Shown here one piece after another: positions 14,641-55,778 of a DNA stretch of 64,000 bases. The translations under genes were made by a program, and so were the position numbers. How positions within the stretch are numbered: position 1 is the first letter of the stretch; each line of letters starts with the position of its first letter. Source of the stretch: Felis catus (taxonomy: Eukaryota); contig NC_058368.1 in the NCBI RefSeq assembly GCF_018350175.1, forward strand, positions 103,728,001 to 103,792,000, in the 5' to 3' direction. The notes beneath the pieces were generated by a model, which saw nothing but the letters and a program-made list of their open reading frames with translations, was not told the origin of the DNA and searched no databases.

Positions 14641-15243
14641 ATGGACAGAATCAAATCCAAAGCACTGGTGGACATGTTTTAAATCATTAACATATCATAA
14701 AATGCAGAGTTGAGGCGTTCATTTGAATTTTGATAATTATGTATGCCCATTCCCATAACTGCCACACATACACACAAAAAAACAAGCTACGGCACATTTT
14801 TGTCATCTCAAAAATTTCCTAATACCCTTTTCCAATCAAATAACTACCGCAGTCCCCAACAACAACCCTGATTTCTTTACCATAGATTAGTTTTGTCTCT
14901 GGAGTTCCTGTAGCTAGAATCATATAGCATGTATTCTTTTTGTGTCCAGTTTTGTTTGCATATATCATGATTAAACATTAAGCTTCAAACCCCTTGTTGC
15001 ATACATCCATAGCTTTATTGCTATAGACTTTTCCATGTGGGAACACATCACAATTTGTTTATCCATATTCTTTTTGAAGGACATTTGGGTTGTACCCACA
15101 TTTTGTATCCAGTTTTGGCCTATTATGAACAAGGCCACTATAAACATTCTTTTACAAGTCGTTCTGTGAATATGTTTTTATTTCTCTTGAAAAATACCTA
15201 AGAATGAAACTGCTAGGTCATAGGATATTTATGTTTAACTTTA

Positions 15244-15460
15244 AAAAAAATTTTTTTTAAAGTTTATTCATTTTTGAGAGACAGAGAGAGACAGAGCATG
15301 GCGGAGAAGGGGCAGAGAGGGGGAGACACAGAATCTGAAACAGGCTCCAGGCTCTGAGCTGTCAGCACAGAGCCCGACGCGGGGCTCGAACTCACAGACC
15401 GTGAGATCATGACCCGAGCTGAAGTCGGACACTCAACCGACTGAGCCACCCAGGCGCCCC
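15244..15460 (-). mobile_element. Can-SINE (felid type)
   Basis: TSD tatgtttaacttta at 15230-15243 and 15461-15474. Confidence 0.95.
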
Positions 15461-16149
15461 TATGTTTAACTTTATAAAGAACTGCCAAATATTATTCCAA
15501 AGCCGTGGCGTTGCTTTAATCTTCCGTAAAAGAATGTCGAAGAATTACAGGAGCTCCACGTGTTCACCAATATTGGGCATTTTTATATATAGATACAGTT
15601 ATAGACACAGAGATAAATATATAGATATAGATAGGTTGTTAGATATATAGGTATCATTTTTCTGCTATTCTAATAAATGTGAAATGGTATCTCACTGTGG
15701 TTTGAATTTTTTCTTTCCTTGATGAGAAATGATGATAAACATCTTATTATGTGTTTAATGAATGTTCATATATCATCTTTTGTGAAGTGTCTATTGATGC
15801 AATTTGCACATTTTTAAAATCTGGGACATTCATGCTTCTATTATTGAATTTACAGTATTCCTTGTATTTTTTTAGGCAACTCAAATGTATGTGTTATAAC
15901 TATTTTTCCCACTTTCTGGCTTTTATATTAGTTTTATATTCTGTGTTTATTTATTTATTTCACGATGTCTTTTGATGAAACCCACTTTATCAATAATTTC
16001 ATTGAAAGTTTGTCCTTTTTATGCATCAACCAAGAAATCTTTGACTCCACCAACATCCCAGAGATATTCTCTCTTATTTTCTTATTTTCTTTTTCTAGTG
16101 TAAGCATTATGGCTGTGTTTTAACTTTTCAGTAAATTAACCATCACAAA

Positions 16150-17385
16150 TTATTTTATTTATTTTTTCATTGAAGTATAGTTAACATACAGTGTTACATT
16201 AGTTTCAGGTGTACAATATAGCGATTCAACAATTCAATACATTGCCCAGTGTTATCAAGGTAAATGTACTATTAATCCCCTTCATCTATTTTACTCTTCC
16301 TCCGCTCACCTTCCCTCTGGCAAGCACCAGTTCATTGTCTGTATTCAAGAATCTGTTTCTTTGCCTTTTTTCTTTGTTCATTCAATTTGTTTCTTAAATT
16401 CCACATATGACTAAAACCATACAGCATTTGTCTTCCTCTGATTTATTTCACTTAGCATTATACCTTCTAGCTCCATCCATGTCATTGCAAATGGCAAGAT
16501 GTCATTCTTTTTTGTGGTTGAGTAGTATTCCGTTGTATATATGTACCACATTTTCTTTATTCATTCATCTATGAATGGACACATGGGTTGGTTGCTTCCA
16601 TCGTTTGGCTACTGTATATATGCTATAATAAACATAGGGGTGCATCTATCTTTTTGAGTTAGTGTTTTCATTGTCTTTGGGTACATATCCATTAGTGAAA
16701 TTACTGGATCATACAGTAATTCTACCTTTAATTTTTTGAGGAACGTCCATACTTGCTTTCCACACTGGCTGCATCAATTTGCATTCGCAGCAGTGCAGAG
16801 GGTTCCTTTCTCTCTGCGTCCTTGCCAACACATGCCATTTTTTGTCTTTTTGATTCAAACTATTCTGACAAGTGTAAGGTGATACCTCATTGTGGTTTTG
16901 ATTTGCATTTCTCTGATGGTTAGTGATGTTGAGTATTTTTTTATGTGTCTGCTGGCCATCTGTATATCTTTTTGGAAAAATGTCTATTCAGATCCTCTGC
17001 TCATTTTTTAATCAGGCTGTTTGGTTGTTTGGTGTTGAGTTGTGTAAGTTCTTTATATATTTTGAATATTAACCCTTTATCAGATATATCATCTGTAAAT
17101 ATCTTCGCCCATTGAATAGGTTGCCTTGTCATTTTGTTGATGGTTTCCTTTCCTGTGCAAAAGCTTTTTCTTTTTCTGTAGTCCCAATAGTTTATTTTTG
17201 CTTTTGTTTCCCTTGCCTGAGGAGACATATCTATAAAAATGTTGCTAAGGCTGATGTCAAAGAAGTTACTGCCTATGTTTTCTTCTAAGAGTTTTATGGT
17301 TTCAGGTCTCATATTTGGGTCTTTGATATATTTTGAGTTTATTTTTGTGTAAGGTGTCAGAAAGTAGCCCAGTTTTATTCTTTTT
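16150..17385 (-). mobile_element. Intermediate-age L1 (carnivore/L1MA-like), ORF2 3' part + 3'UTR; resumes briefly at 20885-20900
   Basis: ORF 17001-17312 [13 protein letters not shown]...WDY...SFCT.KETINK is L1 ORF2; sequence continues (gcatgtag) after the 19-bp TSD. Confidence 0.88.
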
Positions 17386-17729
17386 TCCCCCCTGTATAAT
17401 TCATTTTTTTAGAAATTGCCAAACCATTTTCCAGAATGATTTGACAATTTTATACCCTCATTAGCAACATGAGAACTGCATTTACTCCATATCCTTGCCA
17501 ACAGTTTGTATTGCTGGTACTTTCAATTTTAGTCAACAAATGAGTGTTTAACAATATCTCATTGTACTTTCTATCTGCATTTTCCTGATAAAATTTTTTC
17601 ATGTGATTATTGAACATTTAAAAAATTTATTTTAGAAGGGTATATTCAAATATTGTCATTTTACAAGATTTATTTGTAAAAGTTCGTTCCCTCCCTCTCA
17701 ATTGCCTGCTTGTATCAGAAAGAGAGGTG
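17386..17729 (-). other. Putative L1 3'-transduced segment (contains an unrelated older L1 fragment)
   Basis: Lies between the A-rich tail of the young L1 and its TSD (17367-17385 / 20866-20884). Confidence 0.7.
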
Positions 17730-20700
17730 TTTTTCTTTTTCACTTTTATTTTTTTAAATTTACGCCCAAATTAGTTAGGATATAGTGCAACAATGATTTC
17801 AGGAGTAGATTCCTTAGTGCCTCTTACCCATTTAGCCCATCCCCCCTCCCAGAACCCCTCCAGCAACCCTCAGTTTGTTCTCCATATTTATGAGTCTTCT
17901 GTTTTGTCCCCCTCCCTGTTTTTTTATTATTTTTGTTTCCCTTGCCTTATGTTCATCTGTTTTGTCTCTTAAAGTCCTCATATAAGTGAAATCATATGAT
18001 TTTTGTCTTTATCTGACTGACTAATTTCACTTAGCGTAATACCTTCCAGTTCCATCCATGTAGTTGCAAATGGCAAGATTTCATTCTTTTTGACTGTCGA
18101 GTAATACTCCATTGTGTGTGTGTGTAAAATATATATATTTTATATATGTATATACCACATTTTCTTTATCCATTCCTCCATCGATGGACATTTGGGCTCT
18201 TTCCAAACTTTGGCTATTGTTGAGAGTGCTGCTATAAACATGGGGGTACATGTGTCCCTTCAAAACAGCACACCTGTATCCCTTGGATAAATACCTAGTA
18301 GTGCAATTGCTGGGTCATAGGGTACTCCTATTTTTAGTTTTTTGAGGGACCTCCTTACTGTTTTCCAGAGTGGCTACATCAGCTTGCATTCCTACCAACA
18401 GTGCAAAAGAGATCCTCTTTCTCTGCATCCTTGCCAACATCTGTTGTTGCCTGAGCTGTTCATGTTTTCCATTCTGACAGGTGTCAGGTGGCATCTCATT
18501 GTGGTTTTGATCTCATTTTTTGTTTTTTGGATGTTGAGTTTGATAAGTTCTTTATAGATTTTGGATACTAACCCTTCATCTGATATGTCATTTGCAAATA
18601 TCTTCTCCTATTCTGTCGGTTGCCTTTTAGTTTTGCTGATTGTTTCCTTCGCTGTGCAGAAGCTTTTTATTTTGATGAAGTCCCAGCAGTTCATTTTTGC
18701 TTGTGTTTCCCTTCCCTCCGGAGACGTGTTGACTACGAAGTTGCTGCGGCCTAGATCAAAGAGATTTTTGCCTGCTTTCTCCTCAAGGATTTCGCTGGCT
18801 TCCTTCTTACATTTAGGTCTTTCATCCATTTTGAGTTTATTTTTGTGTATGGTGTAAGACAATGGTCCAGGTTCATTCTTCTGCATGTTCCTGTCCAGTT
18901 TCCCCAGCACCACTTGCTGAAGAGACTGTCTTTATTCCATTGGATATTCTTTCCTGCTTTGTCAGAGATTAGTTGGCCTTACGTTTGTGGGTCCATTTCT
19001 GGGTTCTCTATTCTGTTCCATTGATCTGAGCGTCTGTTATTGTGCCAGTGCCATAATGTCTTGATGATTACAGCTTTGTAATACAGCTTGAAGTCTGGGA
19101 TTGTGATGCCTCCTGCTTTGGTTTTCTTTTTCAAGGTTGCTTTGGCTATTCGGGGTCTTTTCTGATTCCATACAAATTTTAGGATTATTTGTTCTAGCTC
19201 TGTGAAGAATGCTGGTGTTACTTTGCTAGGGATTGTTCTGAATATGTAGATGCTTTCTATAGTATCGACATTTTAACAATATTTTCTCTTCCTATCCAGG
19301 AGCATGGAATCTTTTTCCATTTTTTTGTGTCTTCTTCAATTTCTTTCATAAGCTTTCTATAGTTTTCAGTGTATACATTTTTTACCTCTTTGGTTAGATT
19401 TATTCCTAGGTATTTTATTTTTTGGTGCGACTGTAAATGGGACCAATTCCTTGGTATCTCTTTCTGTCACTTCATTGTTGGTGTATAGGAATGCAACCGA
19501 TTTCTGTGTGTTGATTTTATAGCCTGCAACTTTGCTGAATTCAGGAATCAATTCTAGCAGTTTTTTGGTGGAATCTCTTGGGTTTTCCATATAGAGTATC
19601 GTGTCACCTGTGAAGAGTGAAAGTTTAACCTTCTCCTGGCTGATTTGGATGCCTTTTATTTCTTTGTGTTGCCTGATTGTAGAGGCTAGGTCTTCCAATA
19701 CTATGTTGAATAACAGTGGCAAGAATGGACATCCCTGTCTTGTTCTTGACCTTACGGGGAAAGCTCTCAGCTTTTCCCCATTGAGGATGATATTAGCATT
19801 GGGTCGTTCAAATATGGTTTTTATGATCTCGAGGTATGATCCTTCTATCCCTACTTTCTTGAGGGTTTTGTCAAGAAAGGATGCTGTATTTTGTCAAATG
19901 CTTCTCTGCATCTATTGAGAGGATCATATGGTTCTTGTCCTTTCTTTTATTGATGTGATGAATCACGTTAATTGTTTTGCAGATATTGAAGCAGCCCTGC
20001 ATCCCAGGTATAAATCCCACTTGCTTGTGGTGAATAATTTTTTTAATGTATTGTTGGATTCGATTGGCTGATATCTTGTTGAGGATTTTTGCAGCCATGT
20101 TCCTCAGGGAAATTGGTCTATAGTTCTCCTTTTTAGTGGGGTCTCTGTCTGGTTTTGGAATCAAGGTAATGCTGGCTTCACAAAAAGAGTCTGGAAGTTT
20201 TCCTTCCACTTCTATTTTTTTGGAACAGCTTCAAGAGAATAGGTGTTATCTCCTCCTTAAATGTTTGGTAGAATTCCCCCGGAAAGCCATCTGGCCCTGG
20301 ACTCTTGTTTTTTGGCAGATTTTTGATTACTAATTCGACTTCCTTACTGGCTATGGGTCTGTTCAAATTATCTGTTTCTTCCTGTTTCAGTTTTGGTAGT
20401 GTATATGTTTCTAGAATTTGTCCATTTCTTTCAGATTGCCCCTTTTATTGGCATATAATTGCTCATAATATTGCCCTATTATTGTTTTTATTTCTGCTGT
20501 GTTGGTTGTGATCTCTCCTCTTTCATTCTTGATCTTATTTATTTGGGTCCTTCCCTTTTGCTTTTTGATCAAACTGGCTAGTGGTTTATCAATTTTGTTA
20601 GTTCTTTCAAAGAACAAGCTTCTGGTTTCATTGATCTGTTCTACTGTTTTTCAATAGCATTAATTTCTGCTCTAATCTTTATTATTTCCTGTCTTCTGCT

Positions 20701-20865
20701 GATTTTGGGTTTTATTTGCTGTTCTTTTTCCAGCTTCTTAAGGCGTAAGGTTAGGTTGTGTATCTGAGATCTTTCTTCCTCCTTTAGGAAGGCCGAGATT
20801 GCTATATACTTTCCTCTTATGACTGTCCTTGCTGTGTCCCAGAGGTTTTTGGTTGTGGTGTTAAG
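17730..20865 (-). mobile_element. Younger felid-type L1, 5'-truncated, ORF2 (RT domain) broken
   Basis: ORF fragments [61 protein letters not shown] (FADD motif mutated); several frameshifts; internal deletion near 18510. Confidence 0.95.
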
Positions 20866-21018
20866 GCCCAGTTTTATTCTTTTTGCATGTAGATAACCAA
20901 CATAATAAATTACTTTTGTATAAAAATTTAAGATAGAGGTCAAGGTTTCTTTTTCTCACTGATATCCAGGTATTCTGGTTATGTTTGTTTTTGTTTTTTT
21001 AAATAAGTCTTTGCTTTG

Positions 21019-21152
21019 GAGGCACCTGGATGGCTCATTTGGTTGAGTGTCTGACTCTTGATCCCAGCTCAGGTCTTGAACTCAGAGCTGTGAGTTTAAG
21101 CCCCATGTTGGTTTCCACACCCAGAGCGGAGCCTACTTAAAAAACAAAAAAA
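21019..21152 (+). mobile_element. Short Can-SINE
   Basis: gaggcacctggatggctcatttggttgag head, gagcctacttaaaaaa end. Confidence 0.85.
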
Positions 21153-22612
21153 GACTGATTTTTCATTGATTTAATTTAATATTTTGATCAAAGACCGACT
21201 GGCTATGCATGCATTTGCACAGTCATACTGTTCTATTTCTTAATTTACTTTTCTTTTTCGTTGCCTTATTATTCTATCCTCATTTATATAGAAATGTGTA
21301 TTTGTATGTTTATTATATACACATATGGAAATATGAATATACATCACATACATATATTTTCTGGATTCTCTAATCTCTGCTGTTAATCTATTCATCTTAA
21401 CATACTTATGATGCATTGTCTTACTTCCTAGGGATTTATAGTCAATCTTCAGGCCAAGTACTGTTAAGTCCACCAACTTAGTTCTTTTTTGAGATTGATT
21501 GGGCTGATCTACATTGTTTGCACTTCTGTATATATTTTGGAAACACCCTATTTATTTCTTCAAAATAGCCTGCTGGGATTTTGATAGAAATTGGATCTAT
21601 AGATCAGTTGAGGTACAACAGAGAACAATATGACTCCACCAATTCATGAAGAGGATATTATATATTTATATAGGACTTCTGTAATTTCTCTCAGCTATGT
21701 TTCATAGTTTTCCATGGAGAGATCTAACATAACTTTCATTAGATCCACTACTTAGGATTTGATGTTTTTAAATATAATTATGAGGGTATTAATTTTTAAC
21801 TTACTTTACAGATGGTTTGGTGAAAGTATATAGAAATGTAATTGACTTATATATATGTTAATATTATATTCTTGATCTTTCAAAATACCCTTTTCAGTTT
21901 AATCATTTCTCTTATAAGTAGCACAGAGTCTTCTAGAACCACAATCATATCATTCTCAAATAATGACAGTTTTACTTCTTGTTTTCCAATGTGTACTTTT
22001 TTTATCTTGTTTTTCTACCCTACTGAATTGGTATGGACTTCTAGCAAAAGTTGAATAGAAATTGTGAAAACAGATATTTTTGCTTTTTTTCAAAATTTAA
22101 AGGAAAAGGATTAATGTTTTAACATTAAGTATGGTATTAGCCATAGATTTCCCATAGATGCCTTTCACCATATTAAGGCACTGCCCTTTTGTTACTTGAT
22201 GAAAGGTCACGAAGCAGTTTCAAATTTTGTTATGTGTTTTTTTTTACATACAATGGAAGATTACACAAATTTATTTTATTTTGTTAATAAGATGAATTAT
22301 AATGACTGATATTCAAATGGCAAATCAAGCTCATTCATTCCTGGAATGAACTCATTGGTCACATATTAACCTTTCCACGTGTTATTAGATTTGATTTGCT
22401 AAATTTTTAAAGAGAATTCTGTATCTATATTCATAAAAATTTTGTCTGAAATTTTATTTTTTTATTTTTGTCTTTGAGAAGTTTTAGTATTTAGGTGACC
22501 TTGGTCTTAGAAACACAAAACCACAAAAAGAATTATGAAGCCTTCCTCTATTGTTATTTTTCTGTAAGAGCTTGTATAGGCTGTAATTATATCTTTTAAA
22601 AATATTTGATAG

Positions 22613-22790
22613 GGGGCACCTGGTTAAGTGTCCCACTTCAGCTCAGGTCATGATCTCACAGCTCATGAGTCTAAGCCCCACATTGGGCTCTGCACTGAAA
22701 GCATGAAGCCTGCTTTGGATTCTCTGTCTCCCTCTCTCTCGGCAGCTCCCCCACACCACCTCAAGATAAATAAATAAACATTTAACAAAA
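22613..22790 (+). mobile_element. Can-SINE
   Basis: Consensus body; flanked by aaaatatttg near-TSD. Confidence 0.85.
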
Positions 22791-23179
22791 TATTTGGTAG
22801 AATTCTCAGGGTAAGAATTCAAGAATGGACAGTTCGTTGCAGGGAGAGAGGAGGGAATCCGTCATCAAGAATTCAACTCCTTGAGTAAATACGGCACTAA
22901 TCACACTTTCTATTTCTTTCTATGTTAATTTCTGCAATATATGTCTTTCCAGGAACTTGTCCATTCATCCAAATTGTAGAGTTTATTGGTATAGAATTAT
23001 CCATAATATCCTATTGTTTTCATTCTATTGTCTATTGTATATATACCTACTGACGCCTTCTTTCTGACCTGAGGTTGATGATGTGCGTGTTCTCCTTCTT
23101 TTTTTCCCTTGATTAATCTTGCTAGGGATTTAAAATTTTAATAATCTTTTATTTAAAAGTCCAACTTTTAACTTTGTTA

Positions 23180-24710
23180 GAAAAACAAGAGTAAAAAAAC
23201 TTAAAATAAGTAGAATGAAGGAAACAGCAAAAATAATAAAAGGAAATCAATGACAAGGAAAAGACCACAGAGAAAACCTGAATAAAGCCAGATATTAATA
23301 CTTTGAAAATTTTTTAGAAATTGAAAAATACCTAGTAAGACTGATCTAGGAAAAAGGACAAAAATTCAAATTACCAGTTTCAGGGCTAATCGCTACATAT
23401 ACTACCAATGTTACAAAGGACCTTTTTAGCAATAAAATTGACAGCTAAGAAAATGGACAGCTGCTCAAAATACACAAATTGCCAAAATGACACAAGAATA
23501 AAGAACATTTTTAAAGCACAATCTATCTGCTAAAAATTGAGTTTTTACTTAAAATCTTTCCAGTTCGAAAGTGTCATGTGTGAACTCTCCAAATATTTAA
23601 GGAGAAAAAAGTTAATTCAAGCGATTTCTCTAATGAATTCTGTCCAATATTTGGGGGGAAAATTCATTCCTATACATACTTGGGGAAAAAATTTAAAGAA
23701 AAAAATACAGGAGGACACAACATTTCCTAACGTTTTTGTGAGGTTTACTTAACCCTGACACTAAACCCAATGAAGATATTACAAGAAAAATAACTACAGA
23801 CCAGTATCTCTCATGAACACAGAAATCCTCAACAAACCATTAGCAAATCCTATCTGGAAATATATACAAAGAATAACATAACGTGACCAAGTGAGATTTA
23901 TCCCAGGGATGCAAAATTAATTTACCATTTGTATAAACTGATGTCATTCACCATATAAACTGAATAAAAGGGAAATCACATGAGTACCTCAATATAAGCA
24001 GAAAATTTCTTAGCAAAATTTGGCACCCGTACATGATACAACCTTTTATCAAACTAGAAATATAAAGGAACTGCCATAAATTAATAGAGGACACGTATTT
24101 CCTAAAAACATCTACAGCCACCATTACACATAATGGTGAAACAGTGAATTCTTTCTCCCTTCATACTGTGAATACCGCCAGGATCTGACTTTTAACAAGT
24201 CTATGTGGCATTGTACTAGAGGTCCTTAGCCAAAAATTTAATCAAGAAACTTAAATGAAAGCTGTAAGGATTGAAAAAGAAATAAAACTATACTTTATCC
24301 AATCTTGTATTGTGGGATATTGGAGTACTACATTTATAATGTAGAATGCTACTGTCAATAGGAAAACCAAATGGATTATACATACAACATAAATAAATCT
24401 CAAAAACTTTGCAATGAGTAAAGAGAAGCCAAATACAAGAGTAGGTACTACACTATTGCATTTATGTGGATTTCGAGAACAAGCAACCTAGAGCAAAAGA
24501 TTTCAGAATAGTGGTTGCTTTCAGGAAAAGCATTGCTTTCTCTTCTGGGGCTGGAGAAGGGCACACGGAAATCAAGGGTTGTGGGAATGTTCTTTACTTT
24601 GATAGTGCTGTTGGTTACATGGTTGTGTGCCTTTCTCAAAACTCATTAAACCATACCATTTAAGATTTATTTCAATGGACGTAACCTCTCCCTTGACAAA
24701 AAATTTAAAT
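23180..24710 (+). mobile_element. Old L1 ORF2 fragment joined to an L1M 3' end
   Basis: aactacagaccagtatctctcatgaac...aaatcctcaacaaa...gagatttatcccagggatgcaa (RT region); 3'UTR-like sequence at 24340-24710. Confidence 0.78.
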
Positions 24711-27659: not shown

Positions 27660-27676
27660 AAAGAGAGCCTGCCCTT

Positions 27677-27842
27677 CTCAGGTCATGATCTCATGGTTCA
27701 TGGGTTCAAGCCCCACGTCGGGCTCTGTGCTGATAGCTCGGAGCCTGGAGCCTGCTTTGGATTCTCTGTCTCCCTCTCTCTCTGTCCCTCCCAGACTCAT
27801 GTTCTATTTCTGTCTCAAAAATAAATGAACATAAAAAAAATT
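27677..27842 (+). mobile_element. 5'-truncated Can-SINE
   Basis: Starts ctcaggtcatg; perfect TSD aaagagagcctgccctt at 27660-27676 and 27843-27859. Confidence 0.92.
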
Positions 27843-29047
27843 AAAGAGAGCCTGCCCTTGCTAGCCAGAGCATGGAGAGGAAGGCACCCCTTAGGACAGA
27901 CCCTTTGGACCAAACCTCCCCTGCTGCAGGCAAACACCGCAGAAGAAACTGCCTGTCTCTCTCCTCATCAGGCATTGGCAGTGTCTGTGGAGCAGAGCCT
28001 GTCACATCCCCACACTGCACCAATGAACAAGAGGCTGCAGTGTCCCTCCTCCTGCCCACCTCTCCCCGGGTGCTGTGGATACTACGGCGTAGAATCCTGT
28101 CAACAAACCCCACTATGCAGTACCTACAGAAGAGGCCGAGCCCTGTCCCCTACCTCATCCAACAGCCCATCTTGCTCTACATGAATATAAACAGGAACCA
28201 TGTCTACAGTCCTTGCTGTGCAACAAGGAAAGATCAGCCAAGGGGAGGCACTCCACCTTCTCCCCGTCAGACTAGGGAGATCAGGAGATCAGAATGAGCA
28301 GAACAGTGAGCTGGGTACACAGATTCTTCTATCTCAGCATAAACTCAGTCACACCCCCAACCAACCCATGGGTGAAACTGACTAGCAGCAATACAGCAAA
28401 AGCTTTGAAAAGTGAACTGCGGTATGGAATACCACTCAAGTTTCAAACCGGCCTCAGCAGCACACGAGCAGGGTAAGCAAAATCACCGAGCAAAAGTTTA
28501 AAAACTAAACTGACGTTGGAACTATGACCCACCTACAAAAGTAGGTCACGCTTCCTGAACCTAAACAGGTCTGTTGCCTGGTACAATAGAATATTTAAGT
28601 AGCACACAGAGTATCATAACCTAATACTTTAAAAGTCCAGAACGCAATCCAAAATTATGTGTCAGACCAAGAACCAATAAATCCTCAACTCAAATGACAA
28701 CCGATAATCATCAGATGCCAATATTGAGATAATCCAAATGCTGGAATAATCTGACAAGAATTTTAAAGGCATTATCATAAAAATGCTCCATCAAGAAATT
28801 ACACTCTTGAAACAAATGGAAAAATAGGAAGCTCCAGCAAAGAAATGGAAGATATGGCTAAGAATCAAATAAAAATTTTAGAACTAAAAATATACTAACT
28901 GAAGTTGAAAACCTCCCTGGATGGGCTCAGGAGCAGAATGGAAATAAACAGAGGGGGCAGAAATCAATAAACATAAAGAAAGATCAATAGAAATTATGTA
29001 ATCTGAATAAGGAGAAAATAGACTAAAAATATAAAGTACAGAGTCTC

Positions 29048-54645: not shown

Positions 54646-54849
54646 CACCTTCATCCTCTGTTTCAAAGAGCTTCCCCACCAAGGACTACCCAAATATATG
54701 TCCCCAGCCCCATGTCACTCACGTATGCAATCCTACCCACTGTGCCTCTGGACAATTTTTTCCAATATCCCCTTGTCCAAGCCCTCCATTCCTGCCTCCA
54801 AATCTTCTCCATGTGGCACTTGCAATAAAGAATGAAATAGCATTTTCTT

Positions 54850-55070
54850 TTTTTTTTTTAATTTTTTTTAACGTTTATTTATTTTTGAGATAGAGAGAGA
54901 CAGAGAATGAACGGGGGAGGGGCAGAGAGAGGGAGACACAGAATCTGAAACAGGCTCCAGGCTCTGAGCCGTCAGCACAGAGCCCGACACGGGGCTGGAA
55001 CTCACGGACCGTGAGATCATGACCTGAGCCGAAGTCGGCCACTTAACCAACTGAGCCACCCAGGTGCCCT
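54850..55070 (-). mobile_element. Can-SINE (downstream unit of a dimer)
   Basis: Reverse complement of consensus; no TSD of its own. Confidence 0.93.
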
Positions 55071-55100
55071 TCATTTGCCTATTTTAAAAATTGTCTTGTC

Positions 55101-55314
55101 TTTTTTTTTTTATTTTTATTTTTTATTTTTGGGACAGAGAGAGACAGAGCATGAACGGGGGAGGGGCAGAGAGAGGGAGACACAGAATGGGAAGCAGGCT
55201 CCAGGCTCTGAGCCATCAGCCCAGAGCCCGACGCGGGGCTTGAACTCACGGACCGCGAGATCGTGACCTGAGCTGAAGTCGGATGCTTAACCGACTGAGC
55301 CACCCAGGCGCCCC
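55101..55314 (-). mobile_element. Can-SINE (upstream, younger-type unit of a dimer)
   Basis: Reverse complement of consensus; shared TSD tgaaatagcattttctt at 54833-54849 and 55315-55331. Confidence 0.94.
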
Positions 55315-55778
55315 TGAAATAGCATTTTCTTAAATCCCTTTAGATGCCTGGGTACATTCTTACTCAGGTACTTCACAGATAACATGTTTTGACTTGAGGC
55401 TTAAATGTTACAAGTCAGTTGGTAGCTGGCCAAAGAGAAATAGTGTTCTGAAAGAAGAAGAAAAGAAAGGAGGGAGGGCAAGAGGGAGGGAGGGAAGGAA
55501 GAGAGAAAAAGACCGTTTTGGTAGAAATTAAAGGTGAGCAAAGAGAAATGGCTTTAATCACCTGGGAAGGAGGATAGCAATAATCATAAGGAAGAGATAC
55601 ACAGACCTCTTTGAGAGCTTTCACCTGAGACAGGCTAACTTCATGCACTTTAATAGAGAAATTCTCCATCCAGAACAGTATTTGTCTACTAAATGGGGAA
55701 AAGGTGATATAGCAGATACTTGCCAATTTTCAGAAGACTTGCTTACATTTAAGGAAATCCCCATATTATAAGTCCCAA

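Follow-up and report, generated by a model that had tools for sequence, protein, structure and literature searches.

A nested L1 insertion in the cat genome with older L1 sequence beyond its A-rich tail, a probable partnered 3' transduction

A single insertion within nested L1 elements

We analyzed a window of 64,000 bases of Felis catus DNA (all coordinates are positions in this window) in which a young L1 element, followed by extra DNA beyond its A-rich tail, lies inserted in an older L1. Mapping with a full-length ORF2p (P0046) separated four layers, all on the minus strand: an ancient L1 relic, the host L1 that entered it, the young L1 and the extra segment (Table 1). Three L1 generations are nested on one strand at 14860-23131, and the young L1 landed 10-15 bases from the 5' end of the host L1. 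The ancient relic gives ORF2p matches at 15051-15872 and 21469-23131, and where the host L1 sits in it, traces of an old duplication are faintly visible near 16131-16161 and 20889-20922.

Table 1. Features of the nested L1 locus, in window positions
Feature	Position	Strand	Remarks
Target-site duplication, tail-side copy	17367-17385		19 bp, exact
Target-site duplication, 5'-side copy	20866-20884		followed by GC on the plus strand; TTTT/G nick site
Young L1	17751-20863	-	5'-truncated, dead, probably feliform; ORF2p residues 281-1275 at 20862-17972; stops, frameshifts, RVT_1; 2-3 bases between it and the duplication unassigned
A-rich tail of the young L1	17730-17750	-	own AATAAA at 17745-17750
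Extra segment	17386-17729	-	344 bp, 31% GC, 1 CpG; decayed end of ORF2 of an ancient L1; same strand as the young L1
Tail-proximal part matched by other contigs	17678-17718		right end between 17718 and ~17745; four of four runs
Distal end of the insert	17386-17392	-	G6 plus one A outside the duplication
3' part of the older host L1	16140-17385	-	ORF2p residues 945-1272 at 17384-16402
Host L1, remainder past the insertion	20885-20899	-	last 10-15 bases; 5' truncation point of the host L1
Ancient L1 relic, entered by the host L1	14860-23131	-	~14860-16130, then 20900-23131

The insertion is bracketed by two exact copies of a 19-mer, with identity extending in neither direction. When up to 3 mismatches are allowed these remain the only 2 matches in the window (shuffle mean 0.04, with 0 of 100 shuffles reaching 2). 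The ORF2 of the host L1 picks up after the second copy, reading WLSTCKK on the minus strand and then, at the first copy, one base out of frame as judged against a full-length canid ORF2p. Beyond the right copy 10 of 15 bases match the homologous place of the young L1, compared with 7-8 of 15 at best beyond the left copy. Because the 19-mer is exact and unique and the host ORF2 resumes after its second copy, 17386-20865 (3,480 bp) is one insertion. A preliminary description of this stretch had already read the two copies and the resumption of the host L1 in this way, and both the uniqueness search and the ORF2 reading bear it out. On the plus strand the target reads TTTT/G at 20881-20885 (the second 19-mer copy and the GC that follows), which is an L1 endonuclease site of a class included in the counts of PMC12016303. 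A single duplication of 19 bp, within the 4-25 bp range of partnered 3' transductions, surrounds both the L1 and the extra DNA.

The same arrangement could have been built in two steps, if a small orphan insertion had made the 19-bp duplication and the L1 had later landed in its T-rich far end. L1s often land in the A/T-rich ends of older insertions, and 17730-17750 would offer a good nick site. However, no duplication belonging to the young L1 itself was found, as 17695-17755 and 20858-20900 share only T-rich words of 6-8 bases, all of them with the 19-mer. Such a sequence of events would also require the L1 to land no more than 2-3 bases from the edge of the first insertion, with a target deletion in addition, and we therefore consider two separate insertions very unlikely.

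Age and affinity of the young L1

The element was first described as a 3.1-kb L1 with an A-rich tail ending near 17730, and this description holds: ORF2p matches cover residues 281-1275 and the tail occupies about 17730-17750. An L1 3' end with its own tail therefore stands upstream of the extra DNA, with ORF2p reaching residue 1275 and an AATAAA at 17745-17750, and the tail may include target-site bases of the source element. Pfam RVT_1 scored above cut-off in two of seven scanned pieces, both from the young L1, and the other five matched nothing. Among the best 120 of 619 matches to a 175-residue piece of the young L1, the nearest records are 84% identical, lion L1 proteins 75-77% and dog ~71%; judged by these relatives, the element points to a feliform lineage. 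It is dead, given its stops, its frameshifts and the loss of ~110 bp of ORF2 near 18511-18518 relative to the host L1.

The 3' end of the young L1 is common to thousands of aligned contigs. Within 17751-17810 there are three places where nearly all aligned L1 contigs differ from the young L1, plus one place where they are split. From these contig differences, from the 84% identity to an L1 copy at 243-638 and from the likewise 84% identity to its nearest protein record, we estimate that the young L1 is about 5-8% diverged from its master. The copy at 243-638 is a short 5'-truncated L1 3' end on the plus strand that served as a control; it has kept an exact 18-bp duplication (243-260 and 621-638) and little of its tail.

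The probability that a 19-mer repeat stays exact is 0.14 if each copy has diverged by 5%, and falls to 0.04 for 8% and to 0.002 for 15%. The duplication is therefore of the age of the young L1, not of the extra segment, whose decay is far more advanced. A duplication as young as the L1, around a segment that is far older, means in turn that the segment must have come from elsewhere.

The extra segment is debris of a far older L1

To place the segment we aligned ~17392-17723 with other L1 copies in the window and derived z from 100 shuffles for each alignment. The segment is identical to the host L1 at 200 of 311 positions (z 7.6), to the young L1 at 199 of 293 (z 6.1) and to an L1 at 44.1-45.0 kb at 179 of 277 (z 8.4), while three control alignments gave z values of 0.1, -0.4 and -0.7. 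Its ORF2p matches are weak and lie at residues ~1087-1162 (E 0.007 for a lion protein and 0.13-0.30 for two others, with P0046 at 0.13-0.16). Taken together, these alignments show that the segment derives from the end of ORF2 of a far older L1 and has since decayed. The preliminary description had called it unrelated and more decayed; more decayed it is, but with 64-68% identity to three L1 copies at z 6-8 it is not unrelated. Its proposed use as a tag of the source locus suffers accordingly, since old L1 debris, as opposed to unique DNA, makes a poor tag. Within the window there is no second copy of the segment beyond matches of 13-39 bases.

We also considered that the segment might be a missing piece, or a recent local copy, of the surrounding relic. 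This was rejected because the relic holds its own copy of the region; the two copies agree at 69% of 124 aligned bases, and the shuffle test for the relic gave z 1.2. With the host ORF2 interrupted and the local relic in possession of its own copy, the extra DNA appears, within the window, to be foreign to its target.

No Rfam family matched the segment (4 matches, all at E 2-4 and far under the gathering scores), which speaks against a template switch, in which ORF2p would have started on an unrelated A-rich RNA derived from a relic of an old L1 before switching to an L1 RNA at its poly(A) end. Such a switch would leave a single duplication enclosing both parts and a weak distal end (see below). 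Template switching or RNA ligation does produce L1 chimeras that contain U6, Alu or mRNA sequence, and these resemble this insertion in holding two sequences inside one duplication (bioRxiv 10.1101/2025.02.02.635956). In the chimeras described there, however, the foreign RNA lies 5' of the L1, which forms the 3' end, whereas the order here is reversed and the foreign part matches no RNA family. A template switch also predicts a donor, and we give it little credence.

Search for a donor in whole-genome sequencing contigs

A search with 17000-18000 gave 24 whole-genome runs, all contigs and all from one organism, and 20 of the 24 hold 0.78-0.83 of the words in this interval. Four of the runs, from four studies, were aligned to 17335-17810 at 80% likeness and each was read whole. 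Every one of the four has a single contig that runs from 17417, 17426, 17426 or 17457 to 17795 with 0 differences, and because this contig covers the junction between segment and tail, the junction is real. Relative to the median of those listed contigs that reach 500 bases (3-5 per run), the depth of this locus contig was 1.14, 1.25, 0.89 and 0.85, depth being a rough guide; at such single-copy depth, no identical copy would have been collapsed into it. To the left of ~17460 the contigs form a tangle whose depths do not resolve into pieces. No listed contig bridges the left junction at 17386, and such a hole proves nothing.

One could suppose that the segment has always belonged to this locus, or arose as an assembly artefact, and that the 19-mer repeat is incidental. 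Its single-copy state in all four runs and the unbridged 17386 would agree with this. Yet the host ORF2 reads on across both 19-mer copies, the local relic is complete without the segment, and the chance of a 19-mer repeat is tiny. The presence of most words of the interval in 20 of 24 runs and the segment-tail junction on one contig in four of four point the same way, and we find this explanation scarcely credible.

The preliminary description had expected a second genomic copy of the segment. Contrary to this expectation, no copy spanning the segment at 80% likeness or more was found in any of the four runs, and no joints were listed. This search has blind spots: records resembling human DNA were dropped, the listing gave 32 pieces out of 10,989 and 24 loose ends out of 322, the left junction of this very locus did not appear in it, and a Y-linked donor may have been missed. 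A donor would be expected at 84-90% likeness, for which the probability of an exact seed is 0.98-1.0 with 15-mers, 0.70-0.99 with 21-mers and 0.16-0.66 with 31-mers. The seed length of the search is not stated; pieces of 36-37 bases suggest short seeds, provided that those pieces are chance matches.

When 20 bins from 17399 to 17718 were examined, five carried the locus contig only in all four runs (17495-17542, 17591-17606 and 17655-17670) and seven did so in three runs. Short pieces from other contigs, single-copy and of unequal depths, cover 17553-17589, 17613-17648 and, in run X1 only, ~17405-17452. We rejected these as donor sequence since chance matches of such length are expected: a composition model over the segment yields ~59 overlapping chance matches of 36 bases and ~3 of 41 bases.

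A different pattern is seen next to the tail. In four of four runs, other contigs match a piece that begins at 17678 and reaches 17718 or beyond, with a depth 1.9-2.2 times that of a single copy. This piece adjoins the tail, and it is there that matches to siblings or a donor would be expected. The composition model predicts ~0.001 chance matches that start at 17678, but ~3 once every start is counted, and this place was singled out only after the matches had been seen. Being shorter than the listed pieces of ~66-80 bases, the piece does not continue into an L1 within one and the same contig piece. The stretch 17678-17745 is also where the L1 likeness of the segment is weakest, and it can fold into a hairpin of modest stability (z -2.1, a value reached by 4 of 200 shuffles, the stretch again having been chosen after the fact).

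It had been proposed at the outset that the absence of a second copy next to an L1 would refute a transduction. This rule is too strict, as only the absence of any second copy counts: in dog, 3 of 27 transduction sources had an L1 beside them (PMC13141329), so a missing parent L1 would not matter. The empty donor search lowers the certainty of a transduction without favoring any one alternative, because every model in which the segment was copied in predicts a donor flank.

The distal end of the insertion

The far end of the insert is as originally described, with G6 followed by A6 that merges into the duplication and an AATGAA upstream at 17400-17405. Five of the six A's lie inside the duplication, which leaves one A outside it, and G6A is either a decayed tail or no tail at all. 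The AATGAA ends 13 nt before 17386. For comparison, 30% of all nearby positions (14800-24500) are preceded at 10-30 bases by some member of a set of 12 variant hexamers, and 9% by a canonical one. The AATGAA is thus at chance level and lends no support. A read-through transcript would in addition have passed two canonical AATAAA hexamers within the segment (17669-17674 and 17626-17631), and tails are considered unlikely to disappear wholly with age (PMC5402677). All of these points, like the failure to find a spanning second copy, weigh against a transduction. In human tumours a signal was present at 274 of 349 transduction endpoints, with some lacking any and canonical signals being bypassed at times (PMC13009371). 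The paucity of distal tail is also less damaging because the control L1 at 243-638 keeps an exact duplication but little tail as well.

The weak distal end is equally what a later repair would leave. Templated repair patches, or one-sided invasion between L1 copies, can bring in a tail and flank from another locus with no need of a new tail. An ordinary tailed L1 insertion could have suffered a break that was later repaired from another L1 copy, through its tail and 344 bases of its flank, and rejoined at the old A's. Such a patch mimics a transduction and requires neither a second tail nor a second signal, both of which are weak here. The target is itself an L1, for which many homologous templates exist, and the ~110-bp internal gap of the young L1 could be a seam. 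On the other hand two events are needed, and a patch predicts a donor with an L1 adjoining, of which the contig search gave none. A mosaic test revealed no clear step in protein identity from one end of the L1 to the other: identity was 0.82-0.86 against P0003 in four of five windows and 0.65 in the frame-shifted fifth, and 0.66-0.85 against lion proteins outside the frameshifted windows, a noisy comparison in which P0003 lacks the 3' half. With no seam or donor seen, a repair patch seems to us unlikely, though likelier than the other alternatives.

A partnered 3' transduction as the favored explanation

We believe that partnered L1 3' transduction is the best explanation of this insertion, and probably the correct one. 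The source would have been an active feliform L1 embedded in an ancient L1 relic at another genomic site, and its transcription would have passed the L1's own AATAAA and continued ~340 bases into that relic. ORF2p would then have nicked TTTT/G inside the older L1 described here and copied the RNA from its 3' end, first the flank, then the tail and then 3.1 kb of L1, before an early stop that left the 19-bp duplication. The distal tail may have eroded or, in perhaps a third of the weight that we give to this reading, may never have been present owing to priming at an internal A-rich stretch. The donor may since have been lost, have drifted under detection, or be hidden from the search.

The locus demonstrates one insertion with a duplication and a nick motif, in the order L1, tail, extra DNA, the last being foreign to this spot. 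Membership in the class of partnered 3' transductions is probable because four defining features are present, namely the duplication, the nick site, the tailed L1 end and the foreign extra DNA. That DNA sits 3' of the L1 tail, where transductions lie (PMC13009371, PMC4862182), and we count the tail-proximal stretch of at least 41 bases, matched elsewhere at about double depth, in favor of a transduction. The initial proposal of L1 3' transduction accordingly stands as to one L1-made insertion with DNA 3' of the tail, and a transduction is still its likeliest cause.

A more speculative version, which we regard as improbable, is that of a tail-less transduction, made from an internally primed read-through RNA or mimicked by a patch. 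Its donor would have vanished, the segment here would be the only surviving copy of the flank, and the pieces at 17678 (41-67 bases) would be siblings of a lost feliform source.

Comparison with known systems

L1 3' transduction is an established process (PMC4862182, PMC13009371). The insertion resembles described partnered 3' transductions (PMC13009371, PMC4862182, PMC13141329) in that a 5'-truncated L1 and downstream DNA share one duplication of 4-25 bp at an endonuclease site, and such events are known in another carnivore, the dog (PMC13141329). It departs from the usual ones in lacking a clear second poly(A) tail or signal and in having no donor found in the contig search. In dog, ~1.8% of dimorphic L1s have a mappable 3' transduction, and candidates without 25 unmasked bases are dropped from that survey (PMC13141329). 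Unlike the dog cases, the cargo here is old L1 debris that the canine pipeline would probably have masked (PMC13141329), and unlike the dimorphic canine L1s the insertion is fixed and old. Among the titles listed in the literature searches there was no cat-specific report on L1 transductions, most subscription papers lying outside those searches.

Internal priming, in which an A-rich stretch pairs with a T-rich target end, yields tail-less insertions, with duplications in the Alu case (PMC4859970, PMC5402677). Our locus is like such internally primed L1 and Alu insertions in having a duplication and no clear poly(A) tail, although G6A may be a decayed one; it is unlike the examples in these papers in that those are truncated or tail-less elements and not read-through flanks.

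As a transduction this is one more old instance of an ordinary event, in which repeat debris only was moved. It has little meaning beyond the locus, as no gene or exon was carried, merely old L1 debris into another dead L1. It does serve as a warning that surveys with repeat masking overlook flanks derived from repeats, and that a tail-less case is indistinguishable from a repair patch without a donor and an outgroup. Were its orthologs to be typed, the insertion would offer feliform phylogeny a clean presence/absence marker.

Other repeats in the window

Another old L1 ORF2 relic occupies 23170-24320 on the plus strand; it adjoins the minus-strand relic near 23131-23170, the two running apart.

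At 54833-55331 an exact 17-bp direct repeat (54833-54849 and 55315-55331) encloses two tandem SINEs on the minus strand (~54850-55069 and 55101-55314), which are 91% alike, together with a 31-bp spacer. No repeat of at least 7 bases belonging to either SINE alone was found at this site. The spacer holds T5 on the sense strand, and a T5 there should stop polymerase III. The pair is either a dimer that moved as one unit or a product of recombination between SINEs. A further 17-bp direct repeat, with starts at 27660 and 27843 (stretch 27660-27859), brackets a partial SINE at ~27677-27845.

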